Shown here one piece after another: positions 2,512 to 36,291 of a stretch of 46,079 bases of DNA (positions are counted from its first letter, which is position 1; each line of letters starts with the position of its first letter). The position numbers were made by a program, and so were the translations under genes. Source of the DNA: Anaerolineae bacterium. GTDB lineage: Bacteria > Chloroflexota > Anaerolineae > UBA1429. The notes below the pieces were generated by a model that saw only the letters and a list, made by a program, of their open reading frames with translations, had not been told where the DNA came from and did no database searches. The DNA lies in the NCBI GenBank assembly GCA_049975585.1, contig JBNGEB010000002.1, positions 1 to 46,079 on the forward strand. The letters run 5' to 3'.

Positions 2512-2514
2512 CTC

Positions 2515-3654: not shown

Positions 3655-3674
3655 CCCCAGCGCACCTCCTCCGG

Positions 3675-4922: not shown

Positions 4923-5002
4923 AGTCCTCCGTGACTACCTCACCTGCGATCTCGCGTCTCCTCCTAGATTATAGCACAGACTGCGCCCCAAGCCGTGAAC
5001 GC

Positions 5003-5506: not shown

Positions 5507-5513
5507 GCCACGC

Positions 5514-6095
5514 CTAGCCCACGAGAGCTGCGCGATGCAGCCGGGCATAGATCGCGCCAGAGGGGGCGAGATCACTGCGCATGAGGCTTACGGCATGGAC
5601 TGGCAAGGCAAGATCGCGTGTCAGGTCCAAGACGCTCTCGCGTGCGAGGGAAGCCACCTCAGACCTCGGCGCGTCCCGCCGGACGCGGCCCAACGTGAGG
5701 TGTGCCGTATACGGACGACTCTCTCGCTCGAATCCCAGCCGTGCCAGCGCATCCTCCAGGCTCTCGACCAAAGCGCCGAGGCGGCCCCGCGAGTCCTCGA
5801 CCCCAACCCAGAACACCCTTGCCCTTCGAGGATTGGGAAAGCAGCCAAGCTCCCCCAACGCGAGATCGAATCGCGCATGAGATACGACCACGCGATCAAG
5901 CGCTCGGCTCAGCGCAGGCACTTGCGCAGCGTCAATGTCTCCCAGGAACTTGAGCGTGAGATGGATGCTCTCCGGCGAGACCCATCGAACCAGCTCGCCG
6001 CCCTCCTCCGCCTCGAGACGGGCAATACACTGGCCAAGAGCCTCCCGTACATTCGCATCAAGCTCCACGGCGACGAACGAACGCATGCTAGACAT
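5514..6095 (-). CDS. thpR: RNA 2',3'-cyclic phosphodiesterase (2H family, LigT/ThpR)
   Basis: Two HxTx motifs (HLTLKFLG and HLTLGRV); 193 aa. Confidence 0.85.
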   Translation of the reverse strand: MSSMRSFVAVELDANVREALGQCIARLEAEEGGELVRWVSPESIHLTLKFLGDIDAAQVPALSRALDRVVVSHARFDLALGELGCFPNPRRARVFWVGVEDSRGRLGALVESLEDALARLGFERESRPYTAHLTLGRVRRDAPRSEVASLARESVLDLTRDLALPVHAVSLMRSDLAPSGAIYARLHRAALVG

Positions 6096-6942
6096 GTTGC
6101 TCCCCTCCGCCTTCGGCTAGCCCCAAGAGCCGAGCAGCATTCCCTCCCAGGAAGCCTCCCCACTGGTGCACATCCGGCCGCATCACGCCTAGGTAGCGCC
6201 GCGCAGACAACAAAGGGTAGTCAGTCCCAAAGAGGATTTTGCGTGGCATCCATCCCAGGGCATCTTGGTAGAGCCTCTTGTCATACAACAGCGGCCCGGC
6301 TGCCGTGTCATAGTAGACATTGGTACAAGCTCGTCTCACCTCTGGCATATGCTCATAGAACAAAAGGCCGCCTCCCCAGTGCGCCAGGACGAGGCTATTC
6401 GCAGGATGAGAGGATGCCAGCTCGAGCGCTTCACGAGGGCCTTGCCAGCCCTTGCCAGCATAGTCGTGACCCACCGGCTCACTCACGTGCAACAGCACGG
6501 GAGCGCGGTGTTCCAACGCGAGATCCATGAGCGGGCCCAGCGTGTGTTCGTCGTTCAGTGCGAACCCTTGACCATCGGGGATCAACTCGCCCAAGCCGAG
6601 AGCCCCGGCCTCCAGAGCCCCCCGCGCTACCGAGATGCCCTCTGGGTCACGTGGATTGGTGAGGCCAAAGGGAAGGAGCGCTCCGGGATACCGCTCGGCG
6701 GCATCCAGCACATAGTCGTTGCAGGCGCGACACAGCCCAACATCCTGAAACGGGAAGCCAAACGTCACCGATGCTGCGATGCCCTGGTCGGCCATATGCG
6801 CCACCAGATCCTCAGCGGTGGCCAGCCGCGCCTTGGGGCGAGCGTACAAGCGTGAAAACCAAGGCTCGCGCTCACACAACGCCTCCCGTCTCGCGATGAG
6901 ATCGGACGGTAGGATGTGCGTGTGAAAATCGATGATGAGCAA
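6088..6942 (-). CDS. amidohydrolase-family metal-dependent hydrolase (TIM barrel)
   Basis: N-terminal IIDFHTHI metal motif; 284 aa. Overlaps thpR by 8 nt. Confidence 0.7.
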   Translation of the reverse strand: MLIIDFHTHILPSDLIARREALCEREPWFSRLYARPKARLATAEDLVAHMADQGIAASVTFGFPFQDVGLCRACNDYVLDAAERYPGALLPFGLTNPRDPEGISVARGALEAGALGLGELIPDGQGFALNDEHTLGPLMDLALEHRAPVLLHVSEPVGHDYAGKGWQGPREALELASSHPANSLVLAHWGGGLLFYEHMPEVRRACTNVYYDTAAGPLLYDKRLYQDALGWMPRKILFGTDYPLLSARRYLGVMRPDVHQWGGFLGGNAARLLGLAEGGGEQHV

Positions 6943-7027
6943 GGTCCCCTCTCAAGACAACCTGGCACAGCACCATCATTCTTGCCATGCCCCGCTGTCT
7001 TGTCAACCAACGCCCAAGACCAAAGTC

Positions 7028-7056
7028 TGGACAAACTTTCCTAGCGAGGCTATAGT
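7028..7056 (+). promoter_or_regulatory. putative sigma-70 promoter TGGACA-17-TATAGT, possibly giving a leaderless lipid-kinase mRNA
   Basis: Hexamers at 7028-7033 and 7051-7056. The ATG at 7063 lies 6 nt after the -10 and has no RBS. Confidence 0.3.
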
Positions 7057-7062
7057 TGGATC

Positions 7063-8079
7063 ATGAGAGCCCATCTGATCGTTAACCCAGTCGCCGGCAC
7101 CCACGATACCGATGACCTAGTCGACGCCGTCGCGCACTATCTGGCCGACCATGACTGGAGCGTAGCCATCCGCCGGACGCTAGGTCCCGGTGACGGCATC
7201 ACCTATGCCCGTGAGGCCGCTTCCTCGGGCATCGACGTCGCCGTCGCCATGGGAGGTGATGGAACCCTCGGGGAAGTAGCCTCGGGCCTCGCGCACAGCG
7301 ACTGCAAGCTCGGCCTTGTTCCCATCGGCACAGGCAACGTCTGGGCGCACATGGTGGGCATCCCCACCTGGTCGGTACGCAACAAGAACGCCGTGCTAGA
7401 AGCAGCGCGTATCCTCGTCGAGGGTCAAGCGCGTCAAGTCGATCTGGGCCAGTCGGGAGATCGTCACTTTATGCTTTGGAGCGGCATCGGCTTTGATGCC
7501 GAAGTCATCCAAGAGGTAGAACGCCATCGCACGCTGCGCCGGAGTGTAGGCAATCTCGCCGATCTCGTGGCCGCCTTTGTGGTGGGAGCCAGCCTGCGTG
7601 GCACGCGCACGACCGTCGTCCTTGACGGCAAGATCATGCGACAGCGCCTCATCTTGGCGCTGGTCTGCAACGCGCAGCTCTACGGGCGGGCATTCCGGGT
7701 CGCGCCGCAGGCCAGGCTCGACGATGGCGTGTTGGATGTGTTCATCTTCAAGGGAGGGAGCATGTTGGATGCCCTGCGGCACGCGGCATCCGTGCTCGTG
7801 AACCTGCACGCCAAGGACCCCAAGATCGAGTACCACCGAGCCCGTCAGGTGGAAATTCACAGCGAGCAGCCGCTGCCGCTGCATCTCGATGGCGATCCCG
7901 TGGGCACCACGCCGGCAGAGATCTCTGTTGCCCATCGAGCCATCTCTGTGATCTTTCCCAAGACGGCTCCTGCCTCGCTGTTTGAGAGCGCCGAGCAAGA
8001 GCCTGAGGAGAGCTCCTTGATGGATCGCCTCCTCGGGAGACATCGCCAGGAGCGGACAGAACACGTGGGGCAAGCGTGA
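7063..8079 (+). CDS. diacylglycerol/lipid kinase family protein (YegS/BmrU-like)
   Basis: GGDGTLGEV motif; 338 aa. Confidence 0.8.
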   Translation: MRAHLIVNPVAGTHDTDDLVDAVAHYLADHDWSVAIRRTLGPGDGITYAREAASSGIDVAVAMGGDGTLGEVASGLAHSDCKLGLVPIGTGNVWAHMVGIPTWSVRNKNAVLEAARILVEGQARQVDLGQSGDRHFMLWSGIGFDAEVIQEVERHRTLRRSVGNLADLVAAFVVGASLRGTRTTVVLDGKIMRQRLILALVCNAQLYGRAFRVAPQARLDDGVLDVFIFKGGSMLDALRHAASVLVNLHAKDPKIEYHRARQVEIHSEQPLPLHLDGDPVGTTPAEISVAHRAISVIFPKTAPASLFESAEQEPEESSLMDRLLGRHRQERTEHVGQA

Positions 8080-8137
8080 CCTCGACGTTGCCCTGGTTGA
8101 CACCACTAGCCGTCGATGGTATAGTCTGGGTCGTCTG

Positions 8138-8222
8138 GCCGAGGTGGCGGAACCGGCAGACGCGCCGCGTTCAGGGCGCGGTGGATATTAGATCCATGAG
8201 GGTTCAAATCCCTCCCTCGGCA
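8138..8222 (+). tRNA. tRNA-Leu (anticodon CAG)
   Basis: Hand-folded. Acceptor GCCGAGG/CCTCGGC; D arm GCG-GAACCGGCAGA-CGC; anticodon stem CCGCG/CGCGG with loop TTCAGGG. Long variable arm TGGATATTAGATCCAT; T arm GAGGG-TTCAAAT-CCCTC; discriminator A. No encoded CCA. Confidence 0.9.
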
Positions 8223-8296
8223 TACGGCGCCCCATGTGCATTCGCACCTGGGGCGCTTGGCGTGCCAATCTGCTAGAACTGGGAACGGGAGGACCG

Positions 8297-8857
8297 GTGC
8301 CTCGCCAAGATGCCAGCAAACCGCTTCTCATCAAACGGGGGCGCTGGACCCTCCGCGTCATCCAAAGCGCCCGCCGCAAAAAGACCATCAGCGCCAAGTT
8401 AATCGACCAAAACACGCTAGAGATCCGCGCTCCCGCGCATGTCTTTGAGCCGCAGATCCTCAAAGCGGCGGACACGCTCATCGCCCGCACGGAACGCCAG
8501 CTCGCCTCTTCCAAGGCGCGCGAGCGTGATGCGTACCTAGAGGAACGGGCACGCATTCTCAACGAACGCTACTTTGACGGCAAGCTGTCATGGACGAGCA
8601 TCCGCTTTGTGACCAACCAGAGAAAGCGATTTGGTAGCTGCACACCCGATCGAGCCACCATCCGCATCTCTGACCGACTCTGTGGTGCCCCTGCATTCGT
8701 GCTAGACTATGTCGTGCTCCACGAGCTTGCCCACCTCACGGTACCTAACCACTCTGCCAAGTTCTGGGACTTGGTGAATAGGTTCCCCAAAGCAGAGCGT
8801 GCTAGAGGCTATCTCATGGCGATGCAGCATCTTCAGGCTGACCAGGAGGACTCGTGA
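8297..8857 (+). CDS. YgjP/DUF45 (M48-like) metal-dependent hydrolase
   Basis: HELAHLTVPNHSAKFW zinc motif. Start placed at GTG 8297, 5 nt after GGGAGGA. The ORF-track start at 8234 sits 12 nt after the tRNA. Confidence 0.75.
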   Translation: MPRQDASKPLLIKRGRWTLRVIQSARRKKTISAKLIDQNTLEIRAPAHVFEPQILKAADTLIARTERQLASSKARERDAYLEERARILNERYFDGKLSWTSIRFVTNQRKRFGSCTPDRATIRISDRLCGAPAFVLDYVVLHELAHLTVPNHSAKFWDLVNRFPKAERARGYLMAMQHLQADQEDS

Positions 8858-10296
8858 AGACTGACATGCCCAGATCGGCAAAAGCCGCCGTGCGGATCGA
8901 GACAGACTCGTTGGGCAGCATCGAGGTCCCAGCCGATGCCTGGTGGGGCGCTCAGACTCAGCGAGCGGTAGAGAACTTTGCGGTGAGCGGGCTCCGGCAG
9001 CATCGGGAGTATATCGTCTGCATCGCTCTCGTGAAACAAGCGGCCGCCGAGGTAAACACAAAGCTCGGCCTGCTAGACGCTCGCCGAGGCAACGCCATCG
9101 TGGATGCTGCCAAACGTATCGCCGCGGGCGAGTACCTAGACCAGTTCGTCGTGGATCCCTTCCAGGCCGGAGCTGGCACCTCGCATCACATGAATGCTAA
9201 CGAGGTGATCGCCAATCTCGCCAATGTGGCATTGGGGGGCAAGCGTGGCACCTACGACCTCGTCCACCCGAATGACCACGTCAACATGGGCCAATCAACC
9301 AATGACGTGATCCCTACGGTCACGCGTGTCTGCTGCGTGCGCGAGAGCGTCGCGCTGCTGCGCGCGGTGGATGCCCTGGCCGAGGCCCTTCAGGAAAAGG
9401 CCGAGGCCTTTGACGCCGTCCTCAAGTCGGCGCGCACGCACCTGCAGGATGCGGTGCCTATCCGGTTAGGCCAGGAGTTTGGCGGCTATGCCCTCGCCGT
9501 GCGACGCGACGGCGAGCGGATAGCCCAGGCCATCGACGGCGTGCGTCGGTTGGGAATCGGTGGCACGGCTGCCGGCACGGGCATGAACAGCCATCCCGCC
9601 TACCACCAGGCCATGGTGGAAAAGCTCTCCGAGCTCGTGGGGTTGCGTTTGGTCAGCGCCGGCGACCTGTTTGAGGCCATGCAAAACACGGCCGATCTGG
9701 TGCACTTTTCCTCAGCCATGCGGACCCTGGCCGTAACGCTCACCCGCATCGCCAACGACCTGCGTCTTCTATCTTCCGGGCCTACGACGGGTCTGGCCGA
9801 GATCCACCTTCCGGCCGTGCAACCTGGATCCTCCATCATGCCGGGCAAGGTGAACCCGGTGATGGCCGAGATGCTGAACATGGTGTGCTATCACGTCATG
9901 GGCAATGACCAGACTGTAGCCCTCACCGGCCAGGCCGGCCAGCTTGAGCTCAATGTCATGATCCCTATTCTGGCCTACAACCTAATCCAGTCGTGCGAGA
10001 TCCTGACAGCCGGCATCGAGGCTTTCACGGAACGTTGCGTGCGAGGCATCACCGCCGACCGAGAGCGATGCCTACGCTATGGTGAGGGGAGCATGGGATT
10101 GGCGACGGCGCTCAACGCGCACATCGGCTATGCCGCCGCGGCCAAGGTGGCGCAGGAAGCCTTGAGGCGAGGGGTCACGCTGCGCCAGGTTGCACTAGAG
10201 CGAGGCTACCTGATGGCGGAAGAACTGGACGCCATCCTCGACCCGCGACGCATGACAGAGCCGGGCATCCCCGGCCAGCACCGCGATGAGAGCTAA
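8854..10296 (+). CDS. aspA: aspartate ammonia-lyase (class II fumarase/aspartase family)
   Basis: GSSIMPGKVNP signature loop. QSTND (aspartase-type rather than SSND) and PVMAE after the loop; 480 aa. GTGA overlap with the upstream gene. Confidence 0.7.
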   Translation: MKTDMPRSAKAAVRIETDSLGSIEVPADAWWGAQTQRAVENFAVSGLRQHREYIVCIALVKQAAAEVNTKLGLLDARRGNAIVDAAKRIAAGEYLDQFVVDPFQAGAGTSHHMNANEVIANLANVALGGKRGTYDLVHPNDHVNMGQSTNDVIPTVTRVCCVRESVALLRAVDALAEALQEKAEAFDAVLKSARTHLQDAVPIRLGQEFGGYALAVRRDGERIAQAIDGVRRLGIGGTAAGTGMNSHPAYHQAMVEKLSELVGLRLVSAGDLFEAMQNTADLVHFSSAMRTLAVTLTRIANDLRLLSSGPTTGLAEIHLPAVQPGSSIMPGKVNPVMAEMLNMVCYHVMGNDQTVALTGQAGQLELNVMIPILAYNLIQSCEILTAGIEAFTERCVRGITADRERCLRYGEGSMGLATALNAHIGYAAAAKVAQEALRRGVTLRQVALERGYLMAEELDAILDPRRMTEPGIPGQHRDES

Positions 10297-10398
10297 CGGG
10301 ATCGCGAGGAGCCTCCTGGTCAGCGAGCAGTGCCTGGCATCGCATCACCGGACAGGCTATACTTCGGCCAGGCAGATACAGCACTGGAAGGGGCGCCG

Positions 10399-10551
10399 AT
10401 GTATGTCACCCTACTCAAGCTGTTCCTACAAGTATCAGAGAATCCTTGGGCCTTTGTGGGACTCTTGATGCTGCTCTTGCTATCATGGGGTCTCATCGTA
10501 GCCGCTGTCTATGACATCGCCATCCGATTGTGGGATGAGCCGATGGCCTGA
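10399..10551 (+). CDS. hypothetical small membrane protein (50 aa)
   Basis: ATG 10399 preceded by GGAAGGGG. One clear TM helix (AFVGLLMLLLLSWGLIVAAVY). No recognisable family. Confidence 0.35.
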   Translation: MYVTLLKLFLQVSENPWAFVGLLMLLLLSWGLIVAAVYDIAIRLWDEPMA

Positions 10552-10561
10552 CGCCGCCGGC

Positions 10562-11590
10562 CTATGCGCACGCATGAATCATATCGCGCAGCACCGCCGC
10601 CGAGGTCGGCACCGGCCCCTTTTCCTCGATCACGGCGCTGATGGTCCCCATATAATCCGTGGTATAGACCACGGCCATGTCCCACATGCCGGTCCTCGCG
10701 AGGGGGTGGCGCTCGGGAAGCGAAACGGGACCCACCTGCAGCGCATAGTCGTCGCCCTGGCGCTCAGCCACGGCCAGCGGCTTGATGACACGTCCCTGCT
10801 CACGCGCATGTATAAGCCGCTCCAGCGATACTTGTCGTATGCCCTCGATGGCCACATCGGACAGCGTCGTCGGACGGTCCAGGACGCTGTTAGCAATGAT
10901 GACGAGCTTGTTGGCAGCGTCGAACCCGTCCACATCCAGCGTGGGATCAGCCTCCGCGATGCCGGCCTCCTGAGCGCCGCGCAAGGCTTCTTCGTATGGG
11001 ATCCGCTCCTCCAACATGCGCGTCAGGATATAGTTCGTCGTCCCGTTAAAGATGCCCTCTACCTTGACCACGTCCGAGCCAGCGAGATCGCGCACACCGA
11101 TGTTCACCGTCGGCAGTCCCCCAGCAACGGTGCCGCTGAAGAACAGGTTCGTGCCACGCTTGGCCGCGAGGCCTATGAGCTCTTGGTAGGCAAGCACCAG
11201 CGGTCCCTTGTTAGCTGCCACGACATGCCAACCTTGCTCTAGAGCTTGGCGCGTACAGGTCAGGCCTGGCTCGCCATCCGTTAGGTTGGTGGGCGAGGCA
11301 TCCACAAGGAGATCGGCCTGCGCCATGCGCACGAGCTCTCGGGCGTCGAGTCCTGCATGTGCTCCAGGCAAGGCCGCGACGGCCCCGCCGGCGACCTTCA
11401 GGTCGCGAAGCGCTGCCATATCGATACCCGCCGCGTCCATGAGGGCCCCCGACGAGTCGGCCGCCCCCACCAACACGAACGTGATGCCATACCGATCCCA
11501 CACGGGCTCGCTTCGATGCACGAGGATGTCCAGTAGATTCCTGCCGATGTTGCCCAAGCCGATCAACACAAAGGGTACGCGATTCGCCAT
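10562..11590 (-). CDS. hom: homoserine dehydrogenase
   Basis: N-terminal Rossmann motif VLIGLGNIGRN and homoserine-DH core. Start moved to ATG 11590 (MANRVPF...), preceded by AGGAGA. The upstream extension to 11716 is Arg-rich with no domain. Confidence 0.8.
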   Translation of the reverse strand: MANRVPFVLIGLGNIGRNLLDILVHRSEPVWDRYGITFVLVGAADSSGALMDAAGIDMAALRDLKVAGGAVAALPGAHAGLDARELVRMAQADLLVDASPTNLTDGEPGLTCTRQALEQGWHVVAANKGPLVLAYQELIGLAAKRGTNLFFSGTVAGGLPTVNIGVRDLAGSDVVKVEGIFNGTTNYILTRMLEERIPYEEALRGAQEAGIAEADPTLDVDGFDAANKLVIIANSVLDRPTTLSDVAIEGIRQVSLERLIHAREQGRVIKPLAVAERQGDDYALQVGPVSLPERHPLARTGMWDMAVVYTTDYMGTISAVIEEKGPVPTSAAVLRDMIHACA

Positions 11591-11744
11591 GCCATTCTCC
11601 TGTGCCGCAACCATTGTCTTTGCGCGTCTCGCGAGTCTACCATGTCGGACAAGCGACGCCAACCTGGCGCACCTGCCCTCGCCAACAAGGGGGATGCTGA
11701 CCAAGCGAGTCAGCATCCCCCTTTGCCTGACAGAGGTCGAAGGC

Positions 11745-11984
11745 TAGATGATAGCCTCCAGATCCTCAAGTATCTGCCTCTCGGTAGGAAAGCGTCCCGT
11801 CTCCAGCTTGGAGTAGAGCTTGTTCCCATCGACCAGCACCTCAAAAGCCCCGCCCGAGGACGGTACCAAGGCAACCTGCTCCAACCCGTTACGGAATCTG
11901 CCTAGCACCTTTTCCGCCAGACTGGCGGCTCTTGGTAGATAGCCTCAAGAGGTGCAATACTGGATCTCGACCTTGGGGCTCACA
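11745..11984 (-). CDS. Rdx/SelW-like thioredoxin-fold protein with in-frame TGA (putative selenocysteine) in a CxxU motif
   Basis: Not in the ORF track. GTG 11984 lies 8 nt after AAGGAG. Translation: MSPKVEIQYCTS[TGA 11946-11948]GYLPRAASLAEKVLGRFRNGLEQVALVPSSGGAFEVLVDGNKLYSKLETGRFPTERQILEDLEAII. Family hallmarks are EIxYC, GGxFEV, VDG and GRFP. A hairpin lies 16 nt after the TGA. Confidence 0.75.
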
Positions 11985-12076
11985 GTAGATGCTCCTTTTC
12001 TCCCTAAAAACATTGAAGAAGATGCTAACACACGCGCCCCTCCGGTGCAAGGCAAGCTCGTCTCGACCGGATCCAC

Positions 12077-12451
12077 TCACGCCTCGCTGACGGCCAGCAT
12101 ATAGCCATTGATGTCGCCGACGCTGAACTGCCGGCGCCCCGCGAATTCGACGAGGTCCTGCACGATGATGGCGCCTCGGCTTGACAGCTCTTCGTAGGCG
12201 GCGTCCACGTCTTCCACCAGGAGATACAGCACGACGCCGTTGCCCTTCTCGGCGATAAAGTTCCCCTCCGACGTACCGAGATCTATGGTAAAGGCAAAGG
12301 TGATCTCCCCGCGCGAGACGGTCGCATAGCGCGGGTCGCTGGCATTGGGCCACACGAGACCTAACACGAAACCAAGCGCCTCACGGTAGTAGGCTATCGT
12401 CTCGTTCACGTCGTTCACTTGCAGCATCGGCACCACCTGCTTCCATACCAT
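12077..12451 (-). CDS. VOC (glyoxalase/bleomycin-resistance) family protein
   Basis: 124 aa from ATG 12451 (MVWKQVVPMLQVNDV...), preceded by GGAGGAGG. The 297-aa ORF-track version adds an Arg/Gly-rich N-terminus that overlaps comEC. Confidence 0.75.
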   Translation of the reverse strand: MVWKQVVPMLQVNDVNETIAYYREALGFVLGLVWPNASDPRYATVSRGEITFAFTIDLGTSEGNFIAEKGNGVVLYLLVEDVDAAYEELSSRGAIIVQDLVEFAGRRQFSVGDINGYMLAVSEA

Positions 12452-12489
12452 GGCTATGGCACCTCCTCCCAGCACTACATGCTTCGCTG

Positions 12490-14832: not shown

Positions 14833-14952
14833 AACTAGACCATCAATTCGAACACCAACGACTTGACGCCTCGATCCATTATAGGCCGACTCGCGGCGGA
14901 TCGCACCGGTCTTTTGGTCCACGCTCTCCACCAGGCTATCATCGTTGCTGCC

Positions 14953-16239
14953 ATGAATGTGTATCTCAGCGCACTAGGGTGCAAACTCAACTGGGCGGAG
15001 CTCGAAGGCTTTCGCAGGGAGCTCGTCGGGCGAGGGCACGCCATCGTCGATGCCCCCGCCCAAGCAGACTGGGCCATCGTCAATACCTGTGCCGTCACCC
15101 ACGTCGCAGCGCGCAAGTCCAGGCAAGCCATCCGTAAACTGCGGCGAGAGAACCCATCCCTTCGGGTGGCAGCCGTCGGCTGCTATGCTGAGATCGCGCC
15201 CGGGACAGTGCGCTCCCTGGATGGCGTTAAGATCTGCCTGGGCAACCGCGCCAAAGACGATGTCGTTGGCCGCATCCTCGCTAGCGAGCCGCCCCCTCGA
15301 GAAGAGCATAGACGGCCGATCGATCCGACGGACAGTCCGCGGACCCGTGCATTCTGCAAGATCCAAGATGGGTGCGACAACCACTGCACCTACTGTATCG
15401 TTACCATCGCTAGAGGCGTGCAACGGAGTGTCAGCCCGCAGGCTATCCTAGCCGAGATCCGGGAGCTCGTCGACGAGGGCTACCAAGAAGTCGTCTTGAC
15501 AGGCGTGCACATCGGCGCGTACGGTCACGATGCGGATCCGTCGGCTTCACCCAACGCGGCCGGCTGGGACCTTCCCAAGCTGGTTCGGTGGCTGCTCGCA
15601 GAGATCAGGATACCCCGCCTGCGCCTATCCTCCATAGAACCATGGGACGTGACCGACGCTCTGCTCGACCTGTGGCCCCACCCGCACCTTTGCCCCCACC
15701 TTCACTTGCCGCTCCAGAGCGGATGCGACGCCACCCTTCACCGCATGGCGAGGCGCTACAGCACCGACGATTTCAGACAACGGGTACACGCCTTTCGCCA
15801 GCGGGTACCGCACGGAGCCATAACCACGGACGTCATCGTGGGCTTCCATGGCGAGACGGATCAGGAGTTCGAAGAGACCGTCGCCTTTGTCCAGGAGATG
15901 GCCTTCTCGCGCTTGCATGTATTCCGCTATTCCCCGCGGCCAGGGACAGCCGCCCTACGCCTGCCAGATCAAGTCTCGCCACGGGTCGCCAAGAAGCGAA
16001 GCCAGAAAATGCGCGATGTCGGGCAGGCTCTATCGAGAAACTACCACCAAAGCTATCTGGGGCACACTGTGCCGGTGCTTTTTGAGAATCGCGATGATGG
16101 TCAATGGACGGGGCTGACCGATACCTATATTCGGGCCTCGGTCGCCTCACCAAACAATCTACACAACCAGATTGTGCCCGTTCGATGCGTCACCGCTGAT
16201 GCACGCGGCATTGGCGGCGAGCTCCTGGCGAGCAGTTGA
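14953..16239 (+). CDS. mtaB: radical-SAM methylthiotransferase, MtaB-like (MiaB/RimO family)
   Basis: N-terminal UPF0004 cysteines, radical-SAM CNHCTYC, C-terminal TRAM-like end. Start at ATG 14953 (MNVYLSALGCKLN). Confidence 0.8.
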   Translation: MNVYLSALGCKLNWAELEGFRRELVGRGHAIVDAPAQADWAIVNTCAVTHVAARKSRQAIRKLRRENPSLRVAAVGCYAEIAPGTVRSLDGVKICLGNRAKDDVVGRILASEPPPREEHRRPIDPTDSPRTRAFCKIQDGCDNHCTYCIVTIARGVQRSVSPQAILAEIRELVDEGYQEVVLTGVHIGAYGHDADPSASPNAAGWDLPKLVRWLLAEIRIPRLRLSSIEPWDVTDALLDLWPHPHLCPHLHLPLQSGCDATLHRMARRYSTDDFRQRVHAFRQRVPHGAITTDVIVGFHGETDQEFEETVAFVQEMAFSRLHVFRYSPRPGTAALRLPDQVSPRVAKKRSQKMRDVGQALSRNYHQSYLGHTVPVLFENRDDGQWTGLTDTYIRASVASPNNLHNQIVPVRCVTADARGIGGELLASS

Positions 16240-16273
16240 CGAACGCGCGATCTGAATCTGCGCGTGTGTGTGT

Positions 16274-16303
16274 TGACGATAGCGTTCCACGAACCCTATA
16301 ATG
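16274..16303 (+). promoter_or_regulatory. putative promoter TTGACG-18-TATAAT upstream of yqeY
   Basis: Hexamers at 16274-16279 and 16298-16303 in the mtaB-yqeY gap. Confidence 0.4.
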
Positions 16304-16363
16304 GGGCTCCAAGTGCTGGTGCCGCTGCCCCGATGTTGCCAAGGTACATTCCAATAGGAGCGT

Positions 16364-16804
16364 ATGATGGACCTGAAGGCGCAGCTCATGGAAGATCTGA
16401 AAACAGCCATGCGTCAGCACGACGACATAGCTAGGGACACGATTCGTTTGGCAAGAGCGGCCATTATCAACGCCGAGATCAGGCTCCAGCATGAGATATC
16501 CGATGCCGAGGTCGTCAGGATCATCAGCAAGGAAGTCGACCTTCGCAAGGAAGCTGCCGAGGAGCTCCAACGTGCCGGCCGTGACGATCTGGCGGCAAGA
16601 GAGCTTGCTGATGTCGCTGTCCTCGTCAGGTACTTGCCTGAGCCGATGACCGAAGATCAGATCCGTGCGCAAGCCCGTGTCGTGATCGAAGGCATGGGCG
16701 CTTCGAGTCTGCGAGATATGGGCCCGGTAATGCGCGAGTTGATGGGCCGTCTATCTGGCCACGCTGATGGCGGCATCGTCAGCCGCATCGTCGTGAGATG
16801 CTGA
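16364..16804 (+). CDS. GatB/YqeY domain protein
   Basis: MMDLKAQLMEDLKTAMRQHD...ISKEV pattern typical of YqeY; 146 aa. AGGAG RBS. Confidence 0.8.
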   Translation: MMDLKAQLMEDLKTAMRQHDDIARDTIRLARAAIINAEIRLQHEISDAEVVRIISKEVDLRKEAAEELQRAGRDDLAARELADVAVLVRYLPEPMTEDQIRAQARVVIEGMGASSLRDMGPVMRELMGRLSGHADGGIVSRIVVRC

Positions 16805-16858
16805 GCGTCTAGTCGCAACGAGAATCGACTCTGTACCCCTAATGGGATCGGCGACACG

Positions 16859-18994
16859 ATGGGCAAAGCGGGTAGGCAGGAGCCATCCGAGAAAGAGCAC
16901 GCGCTCCACCCAGCGCGTGTTGCCCTGCGTGGCTTGCTCTTGGCGGCGCTCGTGCTCGCGGCCTGGATCGGGATCCTGGCCCTGGATGGCTCCAGTAGTC
17001 AACTTGCCGTTACCGAGGGCGAGCCCTCGCCCCGCGACGTCAAGGCTCCCCATAACGTCACCTATGTGAGCGATGTCAAGACGCGTCAGGCCCAGGATGA
17101 GGCCGCAGAACTCGTCGAGGACGTGTACGTCGGGCCCGACAGTCAGGTTGTGGAGGCCCAGTTGGCACGTCTGGACCAGATCATCGCGTTCATCACCGCC
17201 CTCCGTCATGACGAGTTCCAAGAACCGAGCGACAAGCTTGCCTTGCTGTCACAAGTTCCAGAGCTGGCGCTCACCGGTCCTGACCTGGAGCAGATCCTCA
17301 CCGTCTCCGAAGACTCGTGGCTGAGGATCGCCTCGGAGAGCCGTCGCATTCTTGAAACGGTTCTAGGGGACCAGATCAGACCCAGCGAGCTTCCACAGGC
17401 CAAACAACGTATCGCTCGGCTCGCGACCCAATCTCTCGGTGAGGATGCGCGACGGGCTAGCGTGCTCCTCGCCCAAAGCCTGGTCGTCGCCAACACGTTC
17501 TCTGACCCTGAAATGACGGAGGCCAATCGGCAGGCAGCGCGAGAAGCGGTTGAGCCAGTGATATGGAGCCTTCGCGCAGGGGAGGTCATCCTCCGCGAAG
17601 GCGAGATCGTCACTCCCTTTGCCATCGAGCAACTGCGGGTCCTTTCGCTTCTTGAACAACGTCCGACGCTCGAGGATCAGCTCACCATCGTGCTCTTTGT
17701 GCTCATGCTCATTGTAGCTCTAGGCTTTTACACAGCGCGGACCCAGCCGCTAGTCATCCAGCGCGCCAAGCGGGAACTGCTTCTGGTGGTTCTGCTGGTG
17801 GGTGTTGCCGTGGCAGCGCGGGTAGTTGTGCCCGCCAAAGGGATAGCTCCCTATCTCTTCCCGGCGGCTACGGCATCCATGCTCGTGGTGCTTTTCCTTG
17901 ATCTACAGCTAGCGATGGTAGTGTCGGCAGTGGTAGCAGCGTTAGTAGGCTTTGTCGCGTCGCGCTCGTTTGAGGTCACTATCTATGTGATGGTCGGTTC
18001 CATCATCGGCGCGCTCTCGTTATGGCGCCTCGATCAGCTTGGATCTTTTTTGCGCGCCATGGCATACCTCGCCTTGGCCAATTCTATGCTCGTTCTAGCC
18101 TTCGAGTTGCCATACGGGGCTAGCGAACCAATCCGTCTTCTGACACCGATCGCTGCTGCTGTTACCAACGCCCTCCTGTCGACCAGCCTAGCGTTCGTGG
18201 CCTTTGCCTTTGTCGGGCGCGCGTTCGGCATCACAACGTCGCTCCAGCTTCTGGATCTCGCTCGTCCAACGCATCCTTTGTTCCGCCAGCTACTCATCAA
18301 GGCCCCAGGGACATATCACCACTTGTTGATCGTGAGTAACATGGCTGAACGGGCTGCTGAGGCCATCGGCGCTGACCCCCTCCTGGTTCGAGTGGGGTCC
18401 TACTACCATGACATCGGCAAGCTGAACCGCCCCTACTTTTTCTCCGAGAACCAGTTTGAAGGCGACAATCCACATGATACGTTGGATCCCCATACCAGCG
18501 CAGATATCATCATCGGCCATGTGATAGAAGGCATCGCCCTAGCGGACAAGTATGGCCTGCCAGAACGCATCAAGGACTTTGTGAGAGAACATCACGGCAC
18601 CACGTTGGTGAACTATTTCTACCGCGTGGCAGCCAACGCATCCGAAGACGGCAACGTGGACGAGGATCGCTTCCGCTATCCCGGACCTCGACCGCAATCT
18701 CGGGAGACGGCTATCGTCATGTTGGCGGATGGCATAGAGGCGAGCGTTCGCGCGCAACGTCCAGCCGACAATGACGCTATCGAACGGGTCATCCGCCAGA
18801 TCATCAACGATCGGCTGGTTGCCGGCCAACTGGATGAGTGCGATCTCACCCTCAAGGATCTAGACCGAATCCGACAGGCTTTTGCGGAGGTCATCCAGAG
18901 CGTGTTCCATCCACGCATCCAGTATCCAGACCGCACCCGTAGGCGCTCACCACAACGAGCGGCTCCGGAAGAGGTACAGCGTGACGCTTCCTGA
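16859..18994 (+). CDS. pgpH: 7TM-HD membrane phosphohydrolase (PgpH/YqfF-type, c-di-AMP phosphodiesterase family)
   Basis: Extracellular N-domain, 7 TM helices, C-terminal HD domain (HHLLIVSNM...YYHDIGK...REHHG); 711 aa. Confidence 0.8.
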   Translation: MGKAGRQEPSEKEHALHPARVALRGLLLAALVLAAWIGILALDGSSSQLAVTEGEPSPRDVKAPHNVTYVSDVKTRQAQDEAAELVEDVYVGPDSQVVEAQLARLDQIIAFITALRHDEFQEPSDKLALLSQVPELALTGPDLEQILTVSEDSWLRIASESRRILETVLGDQIRPSELPQAKQRIARLATQSLGEDARRASVLLAQSLVVANTFSDPEMTEANRQAAREAVEPVIWSLRAGEVILREGEIVTPFAIEQLRVLSLLEQRPTLEDQLTIVLFVLMLIVALGFYTARTQPLVIQRAKRELLLVVLLVGVAVAARVVVPAKGIAPYLFPAATASMLVVLFLDLQLAMVVSAVVAALVGFVASRSFEVTIYVMVGSIIGALSLWRLDQLGSFLRAMAYLALANSMLVLAFELPYGASEPIRLLTPIAAAVTNALLSTSLAFVAFAFVGRAFGITTSLQLLDLARPTHPLFRQLLIKAPGTYHHLLIVSNMAERAAEAIGADPLLVRVGSYYHDIGKLNRPYFFSENQFEGDNPHDTLDPHTSADIIIGHVIEGIALADKYGLPERIKDFVREHHGTTLVNYFYRVAANASEDGNVDEDRFRYPGPRPQSRETAIVMLADGIEASVRAQRPADNDAIERVIRQIINDRLVAGQLDECDLTLKDLDRIRQAFAEVIQSVFHPRIQYPDRTRRRSPQRAAPEEVQRDAS

Positions 18995-19379
18995 GCGACC
19001 ATTCCGCGGCAACCTCATAGAAAGTTTCCGTCATGCTTTCCATGGCTTGCAGTACGTCCTCCGAGCGGAACGCAATGTGCGCGTGCATCTGATGATCGCC
19101 TCAGTCGTCACAGTTGTCGGCCTTTGGCTTGGACTAGATGCCGTCGAATGGGCATTGATCGTTTTTGCCATCGCGCTCGTACTCGTAGGAGAGCTGATTA
19201 ACTCGGTGACCGAGCTCACTATCGATCTCGTCTGTCCGAACTATGACATACGCGCCAAACATGCAAAGGACATGGTAGCAGCCGCTATCCTCGTGGCCGC
19301 GCTCGCCTCTGTCTGCATTGGAGTCCTAGTGCTCGGCCCGCCGCTGTTAGCCAAGGTGAGCGCGCTCTTTCGCGGCTAG
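18981..19379 (+). CDS. dgkA: diacylglycerol/undecaprenol kinase DgkA
   Basis: FRHAFHGL...ERNVRVH...ELINSVTE motifs. GTG 18981 after GGAAGAGG; 14-nt overlap with pgpH. Confidence 0.8.
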   Translation: MTLPERPFRGNLIESFRHAFHGLQYVLRAERNVRVHLMIASVVTVVGLWLGLDAVEWALIVFAIALVLVGELINSVTELTIDLVCPNYDIRAKHAKDMVAAAILVAALASVCIGVLVLGPPLLAKVSALFRG

Positions 19380-19414
19380 GCTCTTTGAGGCACACCAGTC
19401 CAAGGGAGAAGGGC

Positions 19415-20128
19415 ATGGATCTACGGCAATACTGGGCCGTCTTTCGCCGACGCGTGTGGATCGTCGTGCTGCTAGTAACCGCCACCGGCCTGAGCTATGC
19501 CATCGCGCCGCCACCACGCACCAGCGGCTATGTTGCTAGCATGCGGTTTGTCGTCGGCGTGCTCCCTGAGGAATCCGATGGCTCCTTTTACACGTACGAT
19601 CGCTACTACACTTGGCTCACGGCTGAGTATCTCGTAGATGACCTAAGCGAGGTAGTCAAGAGTCGCGCCTTCGCTAGCGACGTTGCGGAGCTATCTGGCA
19701 TCGCTGTGCCCACGGGAGCCATCCAAGGCGCGACCTCAGCGGGCAAACTGCACCGCATCCTTTCGGTCAGCGTCACCTGGCACGATGCCCAGGAGCTCGA
19801 AGCCATCGCGGATGCCGTCGTCGAGACACTCACACAACGAGCTGGCACGTATCTAGCACAACTCGGCACAGAGCAAACCCTTGTGCACGCCATCGATCCC
19901 CCCGTCGTAGCCCCCCTTCAGCCATCGCTCAGAGAGAGGTTGGATCTTGTCCTGCGATTAGGACTGGCCCTTGTGGTCGGCGTGATCGCTATCTTTGGAC
20001 TCCACGCTCTCGACCGGTCGGTCAGAACCAGAGAAGAGGTCGAAGCCTTGGGGGTGCCAGTCTTGGCACAGATTCCGCCTACGCGCTCGTGGTGGCATCG
20101 CGCGATCTTCCGGCGCGCCGATCGCTAG
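19415..20128 (+). CDS. Wzz/chain-length-determinant (polysaccharide co-polymerase) family protein
   Basis: N-terminal MDLRQYWAVFRRRVWIVVLLV TM helix, periplasmic/extracytoplasmic loop, C-terminal TM. ATG 19415 after AAGGGAGAAGGG. Confidence 0.7.
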   Translation: MDLRQYWAVFRRRVWIVVLLVTATGLSYAIAPPPRTSGYVASMRFVVGVLPEESDGSFYTYDRYYTWLTAEYLVDDLSEVVKSRAFASDVAELSGIAVPTGAIQGATSAGKLHRILSVSVTWHDAQELEAIADAVVETLTQRAGTYLAQLGTEQTLVHAIDPPVVAPLQPSLRERLDLVLRLGLALVVGVIAIFGLHALDRSVRTREEVEALGVPVLAQIPPTRSWWHRAIFRRADR

Positions 20129-20214
20129 CGCCCCGGCCGCCCCGCGTACGGCTTTGGTCCGCCTCTCGGCGAATGGTATAATGCCAGCGCTCGATAGGTC
20201 ACTAGGAGGCATAA

Positions 20215-20904
20215 GTGGAGCTATCTGCATACCTGCGGATTCTAGGCAAGCGTGGTTGGATCCTGGTCCTGAGCGTCGTCATCGTCGCAGCTAGCGCCTT
20301 TGTCTTTAGCCGCATTCAGACACCAGTGTACCGATCGACGGTGTATCTCAACGTTATGCCGGCTCGGATGGACTGGGGGTTGCAGCAGGTGGTTCGAGGC
20401 GTGATGCGAAACTATGCAGGCACCATCGCCTCGCGCCCCAACGCGCAGGAGGTCATAGACCGCCTGCAACTGGACATCACCCCCGAACAGCTCCTGGCAA
20501 AGATCACTGTAAGCCCTAACGAGGCCGACCTCGTCCTCCAGATCAATGCGGATGACTATGATCCACTAATAGCGCGTGACATCGCCCAAACCTCCGCTGA
20601 GGTATTTGTCGAGCAGATCAATGCTTATATGTTGGATCAAGACAAACGCGATCGCGTGGCCGTTACCATTCGCGACTATGCGCTACCTGGCACGCTCCAC
20701 AAGCCCAAATGGAAGATCAACGTGCTGGCAGGAGCCGGGTTCGGCCTTATTCTCGGCGTGTTGATCATCTTTGTGCTCGAGTGGCTTGCCTCAGAGATCA
20801 TCCACACACCCGACGACATCGAGCGAGAGATGGATGTGGCGGTCTTGGGCGTGATCCCCAGCACAAGCGGCACTAGGATGCGATCGGAGCACACCCTCCC
20901 TTAG
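20215..20904 (+). CDS. Wzz/chain-length-determinant family protein (second, diverged copy)
   Basis: Same two-TM architecture (YLRILGKRGWILVLSVVIV ... GFGLILGVLIIFVLEWL). GTG start after GGAGG. Confidence 0.7.
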   Translation: MELSAYLRILGKRGWILVLSVVIVAASAFVFSRIQTPVYRSTVYLNVMPARMDWGLQQVVRGVMRNYAGTIASRPNAQEVIDRLQLDITPEQLLAKITVSPNEADLVLQINADDYDPLIARDIAQTSAEVFVEQINAYMLDQDKRDRVAVTIRDYALPGTLHKPKWKINVLAGAGFGLILGVLIIFVLEWLASEIIHTPDDIEREMDVAVLGVIPSTSGTRMRSEHTLP

Positions 20905-20933
20905 CACGGGCTCCGCAGCAGGAGGAAGCATCG

Positions 20934-21599
20934 ATGACCGACACACCGGACCTCGTCACCCTCACAGACCCCCAGTCACCCGCAGCGGAAGCTTACCGCA
21001 CGTTGCGCATGAACTTGCAGTTCGCCGCTCTAGACAGCGATCTGCGGACGCTATTGGTGACCTCCCCAGGGCCTGGGGAAGGAAAGACCACCACGCTGGC
21101 CAATCTGGCCGTCACTATGGCCCAGATCGACCAACGCATCATCGTCGCAGACTGCGATCTCCGCAAACCGTACCTTCATCGTCTCTTTGACGTCTCGAAC
21201 GAGCTCGGCCTGACGACTATGCTGCTCGAAGACGACGCGCTGGCCAACCCGCCTCTGCAAGAGACAGCGGTGACCGGCTTGAGCGTCCTTCCAAGCGGCC
21301 CGCTGCCGCCACGGCCCGCAGATCTTCTCGGCTCCAAACGGATGCTCAAAGTCATCGACGAGCTTTGCAAGGAGGCAGACGTCGTCCTGTTCGACGCTCC
21401 CCCTGTCATGGCAGTGACGGACGCGGCGGTCCTGGCCACGCGCTTGGACGGGGTACTCCTCGTTGTGAGCGCTGGCGAGACCAAACGAGAGCATGCTTCA
21501 GATGCGCTGGAACGTCTGCGCAAGATCAATGCCAACATTGTTGGCGCCGTCCTGAACAACGCTGCCATCGAACCATCCCTCGCTGGCTACTATCGCTAA
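20934..21599 (+). CDS. CpsD/CapB-type bacterial tyrosine kinase (BY-kinase) catalytic subunit
   Basis: Walker A SPGPGEGKTT, Walker A' VADCDLRKP, Walker B VLFDAPP; 221 aa. The C-terminal tail ends in only two tyrosines (...SLAGYYR). Confidence 0.8.
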   Translation: MTDTPDLVTLTDPQSPAAEAYRTLRMNLQFAALDSDLRTLLVTSPGPGEGKTTTLANLAVTMAQIDQRIIVADCDLRKPYLHRLFDVSNELGLTTMLLEDDALANPPLQETAVTGLSVLPSGPLPPRPADLLGSKRMLKVIDELCKEADVVLFDAPPVMAVTDAAVLATRLDGVLLVVSAGETKREHASDALERLRKINANIVGAVLNNAAIEPSLAGYYR

Positions 21600-22065
21600 C
21601 ATTCCATCCTGCACAGATGCCCCAGTCGGCCCCATCCAACACGGATCGGGGTCGCCTTGTGAATTGAGAATAATCGCTACACAGACCCTGTGGATAAGTC
21701 TGTTCGTGGTTGTGGATTAGGTGGAAAACCTGTGCATAGCCTAGGCCGGTTATCCCCGTCTCACTCACAGGTCATCGATACGGCTTTATGATTCTGGTAG
21801 GTTTTTTATGCTTTCCTCTTTGTACTCTAGACTCGCCATACATCTCAACAGGTATAGCTGCTGCCAAGCTTTCCAGTTATATCCAGAAGTTATCCACAGT
21901 CGATGGGGATTATCCACCACAACATATAAAGCCCACACAACCGTGTACCACAACCGGTAGGGGATTCTCCATTCCTTTCCACATATCCACACGCCCTACG
22001 ACGACGACGATACTCTATAGATCCTCCAATAAGCTATATAGAATCTCCCGGAAAGGAGTTGTCAG
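21600..22065. other. AT-rich non-coding island with a DnaA-box cluster (oriC-like)
   Basis: Boxes on the minus strand: TGTGGATAA 21689-21697 (perfect TTATCCACA), TGTGGATTA 21711-21719, GGTGGAAAA 21720-21728. Boxes on the plus strand: TTATCCACA 21890-21898 (perfect), TTATCCACC 21910-21918, ATATCCACA 21983-21991, weaker TTATCCCCG 21750-21758 and CTTTCCACA 21975-21983. Hand count gives about 40-43% G+C for 21781-21900. Confidence 0.55.
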
Positions 22066-22734
22066 GTGCTAGATATCAAAGATCCATTCGTTGAGCGTCG
22101 TAGGGCCATGGTGGAATCGCAGATTGTAGCCCGTGGTGTGAAGGATGAGCGAATCCTAGCTGCCATGGCAAAGGTTCCTCGGCACCGATTCATGTCGGCC
22201 CAGGACAGGTCGCAAGCGTACGCCGATCGACCCGTGCCCATCGGGTGGGGCCAGACCATCTCGCAGCCGTATATTGTGGCTGCCATGACCGCGCTGCTCC
22301 ATTTACAGCCAGACAGCCGCGTTCTGGAGATCGGAACGGGCTCTGGCTACCAGACAGCCATACTTGCCGAACTAGCGGGGGCGGTGTTCACCATCGAGGT
22401 GGTTCCAAGTCTCATCGATCGGGCGAGGGAGGTCCTGGATGAGCTAGGATACAACAACATCCACTTCAGGTGTGGCAATGGACGCGACGGATGGCCCGAA
22501 GAGGCTCCCTTTGATGGTATCATCGTGACCTGCGCGCCAGAACAAGTGCCCGATCAGCTTGTTGCACAGCTAGCCGACGATGGACGGATGGTCATCCCTG
22601 TGGGTCCGCCGGGTGGGGTGCAGATGCTCTATCTGGTGACCAAACACGGTGGGCGCATTGTGCGCACGCCCAAGATGAGCGTAAGGTTCGTTCCGCTGAT
22701 GCCTCCGTCTGACAAGTACGGCGAGGAGAGCTAG
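22066..22734 (+). CDS. pcm: protein-L-isoaspartate O-methyltransferase
   Basis: ISQPYIVA and EIGTGSGYQTAILA SAM motifs. GTG start after GGAAAGGAG. Confidence 0.85.
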   Translation: MLDIKDPFVERRRAMVESQIVARGVKDERILAAMAKVPRHRFMSAQDRSQAYADRPVPIGWGQTISQPYIVAAMTALLHLQPDSRVLEIGTGSGYQTAILAELAGAVFTIEVVPSLIDRAREVLDELGYNNIHFRCGNGRDGWPEEAPFDGIIVTCAPEQVPDQLVAQLADDGRMVIPVGPPGGVQMLYLVTKHGGRIVRTPKMSVRFVPLMPPSDKYGEES

Positions 22735-26300: not shown

Positions 26301-26852
26301 ATGAGCCATAGAACGGGAGGCATAGTGACGGGCACTCAAGGGCTGCTGATCGTGTACACGGGCGACGGCAAGGGCAAAACAACGGCGGCGCTCGGGCTGG
26401 TGCTGCGTGCTTGGGGACATGGCATGCGCGTGTGTGTGGTGCAATTCATAAAATCTGCTCGTGGGCGCTGGGGGGAGGTCAAGGCAGCTAGCAAGCTGGG
26501 CATCACTTGGCACACCATGGGCACTGGCTTTGTGTGGGAGCCAGGTGACGACGAGCAAGCTCGGCAGCGCGCCCTGGAGACTTGGGAGCTGGCCAAGGAG
26601 ATCATCGCGAGTGGCGAGTACGACCTTGTGGTGCTCGATGAGTTCACCTATCCACTGCAATACGCTTGGATCAAAACGGGCGAGGTGGTGGACTGGCTAC
26701 AGCAGGAGAGGCCAAGCAGTGTTCACGTGGTGATCACAGGACGCAACGCTCCTGAGCATCTGGTCGCAGTTGCCGATCTGGTGACAGAGATGAGGAACGT
26801 CAAACACCCGTTCGATGAGGGGGTGCCAGCTCAGAAAGGCATCGAGCTTTAG
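26301..26852 (+). CDS. cobO: cob(I)yrinic acid a,c-diamide adenosyltransferase (CobO/BtuR type)
   Basis: P-loop YTGDGKGKTTAALG and DEFTY motif. Alternative start GTG 26325 after GGGAGG. Confidence 0.85.
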   Translation: MSHRTGGIVTGTQGLLIVYTGDGKGKTTAALGLVLRAWGHGMRVCVVQFIKSARGRWGEVKAASKLGITWHTMGTGFVWEPGDDEQARQRALETWELAKEIIASGEYDLVVLDEFTYPLQYAWIKTGEVVDWLQQERPSSVHVVITGRNAPEHLVAVADLVTEMRNVKHPFDEGVPAQKGIEL

Positions 26853-26983
26853 GTATAGGGCATGGGTCCGCGTTGGATAGTGAAGACGCTACTTGGCAAC
26901 CTTCTGTAAGTGCTCTGAGCAATGAAGGCGAACGGTTTGCCCTTGATGGCCCCGTGCCCACCGGTCCAGTCCGGAAGGCATTC

Positions 26984-27012
26984 TTGACCTTAACTGGTGT
27001 GAATCCTATAAT
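26984..27012 (+). promoter_or_regulatory. sigma-70 promoter TTGACC-17-TATAAT for the thiamine operon
   Basis: TTGACC 26984-26989, 17-nt spacer, TATAAT 27007-27012, just upstream of the TPP aptamer. Confidence 0.6.
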
Positions 27013-27032
27013 AGGTATGTAACAATAAAATA

Positions 27033-27122
27033 GGCCGCTGGGGGAGCCGCTGGGCTGAGAGGATGACTTTCGTCATCGACCCCTGGAACCTGATCTGGGT
27101 CATGCCAGCGTAGGGAAGCATA
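27033..27122 (+). promoter_or_regulatory. TPP (THI-box) riboswitch aptamer
   Basis: GGGGAGCC...CTGAGAGG...ACCCCTGGAACCTGATCTGGGTCATGCCAGCGTAGGGAAGC matches the THI-element core (CUGAGA, ACCC, GAACCUGAUC, GCCAGCG, AGGGAA). Confidence 0.9.
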
Positions 27123-27139
27123 GAATCGAGCTTTCACAA

Positions 27140-27180
27140 GCGCCGCTGGGTGTCACCAAGCGGCGCATTCTGTTTTCTGG
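27140..27180 (+). terminator. riboswitch expression platform: hairpin plus T-rich tract overlapping the thiN RBS
   Basis: GCGCCGCT (27140-27147) pairs with AGCGGCGC (27159-27166) across an 11-nt loop, followed by ATTCTGTTTTCTGGAGG. Confidence 0.55.
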
Positions 27181-27190
27181 AGGTCACACG

Positions 27191-36198: not shown

Positions 36199-36291
36199 GT
36201 AGGCGACCTGTGTTTCAAGACAACAGGCGAGGGGTGACCGCAGAGGCATGGCTCGGACTCGAGAGACTGACAAAAAGTATCGGAGGCGATA

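Follow-up and report, generated by a model that had tools for sequence, protein, structure and literature searches.

The stretch of DNA analysed here (the window) is one complete contig of 46,079 bp from an uncultured Anaerolineae bacterium (Chloroflexota), and all results on the window cover these 46 kb of the replicon. Within the window, a non-coding gap at 21600–22065 is bounded by a gene for a CpsD/BY-kinase-like ATPase (20934–21599) and by pcm, which starts with a GTG codon at 22066 and whose product was identified by Pfam (PCMT, E = 4.5e-61). A first-pass annotation had called this gap an origin-like island built of two opposed arrays of DnaA boxes, and had described it as the largest and most AT-rich non-coding gap of the window. 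The GC content is 48% in the gap and 61% in the contig as a whole; of all 120-bp windows of the contig, the one with the lowest GC content (40%) begins in the gap, at 21774. Two other gaps of similar size have a GC content of 55–58%, which upholds the claim on AT-richness, whereas the claim on length does not strictly apply since the gaps at ~11939–12489 (551 bp) and 26661–27190 (530 bp) are of similar size. Judged from its sequence, the gap is in all likelihood the chromosomal replication origin (oriC), of the DnaA type, of this bacterium. The call of an origin is borne out by a switch in GC skew and Z-curve at the site, by an excess of DnaA boxes over chance and by conservation in 13 further lineages.

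The gap carries two perfect copies of the DnaA box TTATCCACA, one at 21689–21697 on the minus strand and one at 21890–21898 on the plus strand, which are the only ones in the 46 kb. Compared to these two copies, 0.09 would be expected, and none of 100 shuffles reached two. When one mismatch was allowed, five of the eight boxes of the window fell within 21689–21991. With up to two mismatches, the gap holds 12 boxes where 0.65 would be expected from their frequency elsewhere in the window (Poisson P = 7e-12), while composition-matched shuffles of the gap contained 1.4 such boxes on average and none of 2000 reached 12. The gap thus harbors a box cluster well above chance, as expected for an oriC.

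The boxes form arrays of opposed orientation, mainly on the minus strand at the left and mainly on the plus strand at the right, as the first-pass annotation had described; the weaker boxes that it listed (21711–21719, 21720–21728, 21750–21758, 21910–21918, 21975–21983 and 21983–21991) are all present. The left array (21689–21739, minus strand) consists of the perfect box at 21689–21697, a box with one mismatch at 21711–21719 and two boxes with two mismatches each at 21720–21728 and 21731–21739. In an alignment of eight gaps (alignment A1), the boxes at 21689–21697 and 21711–21719 are nearly invariant, and the position equivalent to 21731–21739 is a perfect box in two related contigs (L084 and L088). 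A weak plus-strand box with two mismatches, TTATCCCCG at 21750–21758, is retained in close relatives only. The right array (21879–21918, mainly plus strand) comprises a box with two mismatches at 21879–21887, the perfect box at 21890–21898, which is conserved in most lineages, and a box with one mismatch at 21910–21918; a minus-strand site with two mismatches overlaps it at 21904–21912. A further inverted pair claimed for the gap, CCACAACC and GGTTGTGG, is indeed opposed; its member CCACAACC lies at 21948–21955 rather than at 21949–21956, and both members are merely the cores of DnaA boxes.

The strand composition of the contig switches at the same place. The cumulative GC skew has its minimum at 22049, and the Z-curve extremes lie at 22027 (minimum of the purine/pyrimidine, RY, component) and 22054 (maximum of the amino/keto, MK, component), so that the skew and Z-curve check proposed for the island places all three extremes inside the gap. 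The mean skew changes from -0.066 left of the gap to +0.074 right of it. To the same effect, the GC skew at third codon positions (GC3), read on the plus strand, is negative in 20 of 20 genes on the left (pooled -0.16 for plus-strand and -0.09 for minus-strand genes) and takes positive values in 17 of the 21 right-hand genes (+0.05 and +0.12; Mann-Whitney p = 6e-7 for left versus right). Since the sign is the same on either coding strand, the flip of the skew is independent of gene orientation. On the plus strand, C exceeds G before the gap and G exceeds C after it, a polarity that marks an origin and not a terminus. Within the 46-kb contig, the gap is hence located at the strand-composition switch at which an oriC is expected.

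The best conserved block of alignment A1 is the right end of the gap, which reads CTTTCCAC[A]TATCCACA, CGCC, CTA CGA CGA CGA CGA and then AT-rich DNA. The first element is a pair of tandem, co-oriented boxes on the plus strand (21975–21991) that share one base, namely CTTTCCACA at 21975–21983 with two mismatches and ATATCCACA at 21983–21991 with one mismatch. It is followed by the GC cluster CGCC at 21992–21995, and by a putative array of DnaA-trios at 21996–22010, for which the minus strand serves as the trio strand (3′-GAT GCT GCT GCT GCT-5′). The array is positionally homologous to the sequence 3′-GAT GAT GCT GAT GAT-5′ of more distant relatives. The combined box-to-trio pattern was found at a single place in the window, against zero occurrences expected by chance. 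Behind the trios lies an AT-rich region of ~37 bp (22011–22047), which ends at the ribosome-binding site of pcm and which we propose as the site of DNA unwinding and helicase loading. The 40 bp that follow the trios are 62–80% AT in all eight lineages compared, against locus backgrounds of 35–41%. In the window, this stretch also carries the extremes of skew and Z-curve (22027–22054). By composition, the AT-rich region that an oriC has next to its boxes is therefore found at 22011–22047.

This placement departs from the first-pass annotation, which had proposed the central T-rich stretch GGTTTTTTATGCTTTCCTCTTTGT as unwinding element. The T-rich stretch (~21801–21824) belongs to a variable central spacer (21759–21878), which also includes the lowest-GC 120-bp window but shows almost no conserved columns in alignment A1 and is the least conserved part of the gap. 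The AT content of this center ranges from 36 to 61% across lineages compared to locus backgrounds of 35–41%, and in L086 it is 36% against a background of 35%. We rejected the T-rich stretch as it is neither conserved nor consistently AT-rich. Based on the conservation of the right end, the AT-rich DNA behind the trios and the skew extremes located there, the unwinding site was reassigned to the right end, with the conserved module spanning 21975–22047. Two further candidates were discarded. A mirror-image module left of the box at 21689 (14-bp spacer, GAG AAT AAT) is present in the closest relatives only and its region is not AT-rich, and TAC GAC GAC GAC GAT read as A-centered trios of the plus strand lies on the wrong strand for the orientation of the boxes, judged by the scaffold of Bacillus subtilis.

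The basal unwinding system (BUS) at incC of the B. subtilis oriC, reportedly the subject of work by Richardson (2016 and 2019) and Pelliciari (2021 and 2023), offers the closest comparison for this module. Its scaffold reads TTATCCAC[A]AATCCACA, GGCC, CTA CTA TTA CTT CTA CTA (PMC8287927, supplement). Boxes 6 and 7 of B. subtilis and the pair at 21975–21991 are both co-oriented and overlap by one base. Both modules have a 4-bp GC cluster, 12 bp between the upstream box and the first trio, a first trio 3′-GAT-5′, a period of three and AT-rich DNA next to the trios. The rules of a published BUS survey call for a box with at most two mismatches oriented toward the trios and for a spacer of at most 16 bp to the first trio, with a mode of 10–13 bp (PMC8287927). 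In the window, a box of this kind lies at 21983–21991, upstream of the repeat, with a second, co-oriented tandem box at 21975–21983, and the spacer to the first trio measures 12 bp for the upstream box and 4 bp for the proximal one. Differences exist as well: trios 2–5 of the window are 3′-GCT-5′, the module is flanked by the CpsD-like ATPase gene and pcm instead of dnaA and dnaN, and the box arrays all lie in one 400-bp gap instead of being split around dnaA.

Two short motifs between the right array and this module, at 21917–21924 and 21958–21966 (ACCAC[A/T]A and T[A/T]G[T/G]GG), are kept in most lineages. They resemble the box cores CCACA and TGTGG and may represent low-affinity DnaA sites.

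To compare the locus with that of relatives, we collected contigs encoding homologs of the ATPase with 64–86% identity, which gave nine further independent lineages; the named relatives in this search are entered as "MAG: Anaerolineae bacterium". Pcm was not suitable as an anchor for related genomes, its best matches being at most 60% identical, spread over many phyla and without synteny or box clusters. All nine lineages possess a gap of 430–845 bp at the same place. To its left, the same plus-strand block is found in the same order in nine of nine, comprising YqeY, a 7TM-HD/PgpH-like protein, DAGK, a hypothetical protein (~237 aa), a Wzz-like protein and the CpsD-like ATPase, headed in most relatives by S21; in the related contigs (L081–L094, L215 and L216) it lies at about 5000–10666. 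The right-hand neighbor differs and can be pcm, an ABC transporter, EF-P or a peptidase gene, and the element is hence tied to the left block and not to pcm. The gap of every relative has minus-strand boxes at the left, plus-strand boxes at the right and the module of box pair, GC cluster, trios and AT-rich DNA. A motif scan described below added four contigs of the same arrangement (L113, L121, L155 and L184), so that this non-coding element is conserved in a total of 13 further lineages, as expected of an oriC among related genomes. Of the nine lineages, five have their local minimum of the cumulative skew inside the gap, and another two (L091/92 and L215) have it no more than 0.6 kb to the right of the gap.

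As the first-pass annotation had noted, neither dnaA nor dnaN is located near the gap: Pfam scans of 40 of the 41 called open reading frames of the window revealed none, and a Pfam-verified DnaA used as tblastn query had no match in the whole window and none in 18 related loci. Adjacency to dnaA or dnaN is a common but not obligatory indicator of oriC, and it is not seen here. In one relative (L093, at 525–4741, and L094), dnaN and recF (both on the minus strand) and rsmG (gidB; plus strand) lie 6–8 kb left of the gap. This is the only relative in which dnaN and recF come this near, and the gene upstream of dnaN encodes a methyltransferase and not DnaA. The layout of L093 suggests that the classic dnaA-oriC-dnaN region has been broken up in this class. 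From sequence comparison, the gap between the ATPase gene and its right-hand neighbor is predicted to be the fixed site of the origin throughout this Anaerolineae clade, apart from dnaA and dnaN.

We further scanned metagenome contigs with a pattern consisting of the box pair, the GC cluster, the first trio and an A with period three, in which the central base of trios 2–5 was left free. The scan yielded at least 120 loci (L095–L214) with GC contents of 28–70%. Among the loci listed, dnaN follows directly downstream in 54 and dnaA is present within 1 kb in 52 (tblastn). The presence of dnaA or dnaN beside many of these loci identifies them as bona fide origin contexts of the classic dnaA-BUS-dnaN type and makes the motif a good marker of origins. 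Among the same loci, 28 of the 81 that could be evaluated (at least 2 kb upstream) lack dnaA upstream. Origins separated from dnaA thus seem to be common rather than rare in metagenomes. The location that the first-pass annotation had considered unusual is indeed away from dnaA and dnaN; it is, however, not a one-off, being fixed in the clade and matched by these 28 loci. At least L149, which has no DnaA boxes nearby and 40% AT downstream, appears to have been matched by chance. Another locus, L162 (51% GC), carries the motif at 5233–5263 with no dnaA in the 5 kb upstream and with genes for an ArsR-type protein, a peptidase M1 and a CitMHS transporter around it; its dnaN (9060–10193), 51% identical to that of L093, is located 3.8 kb downstream of the motif. 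L162 may represent a second Chloroflexota-like lineage whose origin is separated from its usual neighbors.

The trios of the window differ from the known pattern in one respect. While the first is a canonical 3′-GAT-5′, trios 2–5 are 3′-GCT-5′ and thus have C at their center. C occupies all four of these centers in the window and in its closest relatives L081, L083, L084 and L184, three of four in L113 and L121, two of four in L086 and one of four in L088, L091, L093 and L155, and the number of C-centered trios rises across the clade with relatedness to the window. Among the loci listed in the metagenome scan, 90 distinct modules from other contexts, a sample conditioned on the search pattern and lightly dereplicated, have A (75%), C (19%), T (4%) or G (1%) at the center of trios 2–5 on the trio strand, and none of the 90 has C at all four positions. 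The ranking A > C > T > G in these modules matches the tolerance reported for B. subtilis in vitro and in vivo, where A is best replaced by C.

In B. subtilis, exchange of the central A of trio 1 for C leaves strand separation close to native, and in vivo a change of trios 1–3 to C allows faster growth and more frequent initiation than a change to G or T (Pelliciari et al. 2023, PMC10721633). A and C share a primary amine that is contacted by Asn187, and the authors considered that some DnaA homologs possibly recognize other sequences (PMC10721633). Since C offers the same primary amine as A, the GCT trios would, by this analogy, be expected to be still bound by DnaA. The homologous modules of L091, L155 and L216 have at least three consecutive A-centered trios, and their positional homology with those of the window marks the latter as a variant of the same module. 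We put forward, with about even confidence, that the subclade of the window runs its origin on C-centered trios, the central adenine having been replaced almost wholly and stepwise across the clade. The clade looks like a natural case of altered trio recognition and could serve as a natural test of the 'primary amine' model. If this is true, the DnaA of this lineage may have shifted its single-strand specificity, and search rules built on A-centered trios would miss real unwinding modules.

The system of B. subtilis suggests, by analogy, a possible course of initiation at the gap. Seeded by DnaA on the tandem boxes, an ATP-DnaA filament would form along the trio strand, stretch this strand and capture its bases. 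The duplex would open at 22011–22047, where the helicase would be loaded and from where forks would depart both ways. The distal box arrays may recruit and organize further DnaA, like the opposed half-origins of E. coli. At the other end of the gap, a GC-rich hairpin directly 3′ of the stop codon of the ATPase gene (21625–21657, plus strand), found by folding, is the probable terminator of the upstream plus-strand operon. A strong hairpin was present at the equivalent place in nine of nine relatives folded, with differing sequences and in several cases a U-tail. That the structure is kept but not its sequence suggests a terminator just before the origin. A simple terminator scan of the window did not call the hairpin at 21625–21657 as the copy of the window lacks a T-run. 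The hairpin would probably shield the origin by blocking read-through transcription from the upstream operon.

Several observations weigh against the assignment of the gap as oriC. The assignment is drawn from sequence throughout, the dnaA gene of the organism was not located and a second box cluster might lie beside it, and the skew minimum is local to 46 kb with a global minimum possibly elsewhere. Two of the relatives, L083 with its short left arm and L216, have their skew minimum away from the gap. The published BUS search rule calls for at least three consecutive 3′-NAN-5′ trios on the strand set by the orientation of the boxes (PMC8287927), and the window fails it with only trio 1 being A-centered. 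No parS-like site (TGTTTCACGTGAAACA) was found at up to three mismatches in the window, which extends 21–24 kb to either side of the origin. Furthermore, 7 kb on the left and ~4 kb on the right are transcribed toward the origin and would be head-on to departing forks. The first-pass annotation had raised this last point for the left side, and the left operon does run toward the origin; since the arrangement is kept in every lineage fetched with the ATPase, it is a feature of the clade and does not refute an origin.

These points leave room for the view that the gap is a relic or secondary box cluster and that the active origin is found at another place, for instance next to dnaA. The gap could be what rearrangement has left of an ancestral dnaA-oriC-dnaN region, or it could form half of a bipartite origin, and the absence of dnaA from the window and every related locus, the dnaN and recF genes 6–8 kb away in L093, which hint at a rearranged ancestral origin region, and a skew that is known locally only would all agree with it. 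However, at 64–86% identity of the ATPase, the AT-rich tract is kept together with the box pair, the spacer and the phase of the trios while the rest of the gap diverges. The skew switch, which requires forks starting here, is located at this site in the window, and most relatives have it within the gap or close by. We thus regard a relic as very unlikely.

Clusters of DnaA boxes also occur at non-origin sites, and the gap is located directly upstream of pcm, with one weak sigma-70-like match at 21764–21792. It could accordingly be read as a DnaA-titration or regulatory site, comparable to datA and DARS of E. coli, or as a DnaA-controlled promoter of pcm. The cluster stays with the ATPase gene where pcm is replaced or displaced (L088, L093 and L215) and is therefore not a regulatory element of pcm, and promoter-like sites in the gap are no more frequent than in shuffles. 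The datA and DARS sites share with the gap a box cluster away from dnaA, but they possess neither the box pair nor a trio array or AT-rich unwinding region, do not lie at a skew switch and are not sites where replication starts. The gap does not conform to their definition as a box cluster without unwinding module and away from the replication start, and both variants of this explanation appear highly improbable. Finally, although a single 46-kb metagenomic contig cannot show the size or topology of its replicon, a skew flip caused by a recent inversion or assembly join, or an origin of a secondary replicon (plasmid or chromid), is scarcely credible, given the same gene order across the junction in independently assembled JGI, ENA, NCBI and Logan contigs, the core housekeeping genes (secG, tsaE, transketolase, fumarase and comEC; S21, EF-P and GroEL, which are carried by relatives) and the fact that no plasmid replication or partition genes were seen.

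With the gap taken as oriC, its architecture also invites comparison with the oriC of E. coli (gidA-mioC), which likewise does not lie beside dnaA, and has two opposed box arrays and an unwinding element at one end. In contrast to the window, however, no tandem boxes with a GC cluster in this geometry precede the duplex-unwinding element of E. coli. The E. coli oriC relies on IHF, 13-mer repeats and control by GATC sites and SeqA. A literature search yielded no description of an origin from Anaerolineae or Chloroflexota. Cultured Chloroflexi of the same phylum or class, e.g. Anaerolinea thermophila UNI-1 (ORI94030346), also have predicted DnaA-box origins (DoriC), and the candidates that the 2021 BUS survey obtained in Chloroflexi are only weak ones (PMC8287927). 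The candidate of A. thermophila has a box with two mismatches, a 16-bp spacer and a score of 7, and its sequence is unrelated to the module of the window.

The assignment would fix the origin for a widespread and almost entirely uncultured bacterial class. A known origin helps to orient genomes, to estimate growth rates from metagenome read coverage and to check the assembly of metagenome-assembled genomes. A module of the B. subtilis type, with spacing identical to the base, is present in Chloroflexota, which supports the module being ancient. Origin finders would place this origin wrongly or score it too low if they demand NAN trios or adjacency to dnaA.

On the right, the origin would be limited by the ribosome-binding site GGAAAGGAG and GTG start codon of pcm (22050–22068, plus strand), which were assigned from sequence, translation and Pfam. 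The gap itself gave no match in Rfam at E ≤ 1 and holds no conserved open reading frame. Those at 21788–22072 (plus strand) and 21526–21768 (minus strand) were rejected as coding, their matches being short and coinciding with conserved DNA motifs or the end of the ATPase gene. Exact look-ups of the Pcm and ATPase of the window returned no record, and no parA/parB pair was seen in the window. The 40 open reading frames scanned with Pfam represent ordinary chromosomal housekeeping content, including comEC, a MiaB-like radical-SAM enzyme, yqeY, a 7TM-HD protein, Wzz, the ATPase, pcm, an SBP5 solute-binding protein, secG, tsaE, transketolase, fumarase and others. The plus-strand block at 14863–21599 ends at the predicted origin and points at it, head-on to the leftward fork.

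Three further observations concern the genes of the window. The ATPase, which has 221 aa, is unusually well conserved, with 64–90% identity over the best 120 matches listed. A small Rdx-family gene (11744–11938, minus strand), whose product is 75% identical to a 64-aa product of L084, sits in a seemingly long gap that separates comEC from the homoserine dehydrogenase gene. Among the housekeeping genes ~14 kb to the right of the origin, a plus-strand gene at 36271–39243 encodes a STAND-type NTPase of 990 aa (NB-ARC/AAA_16) with TPR repeats.

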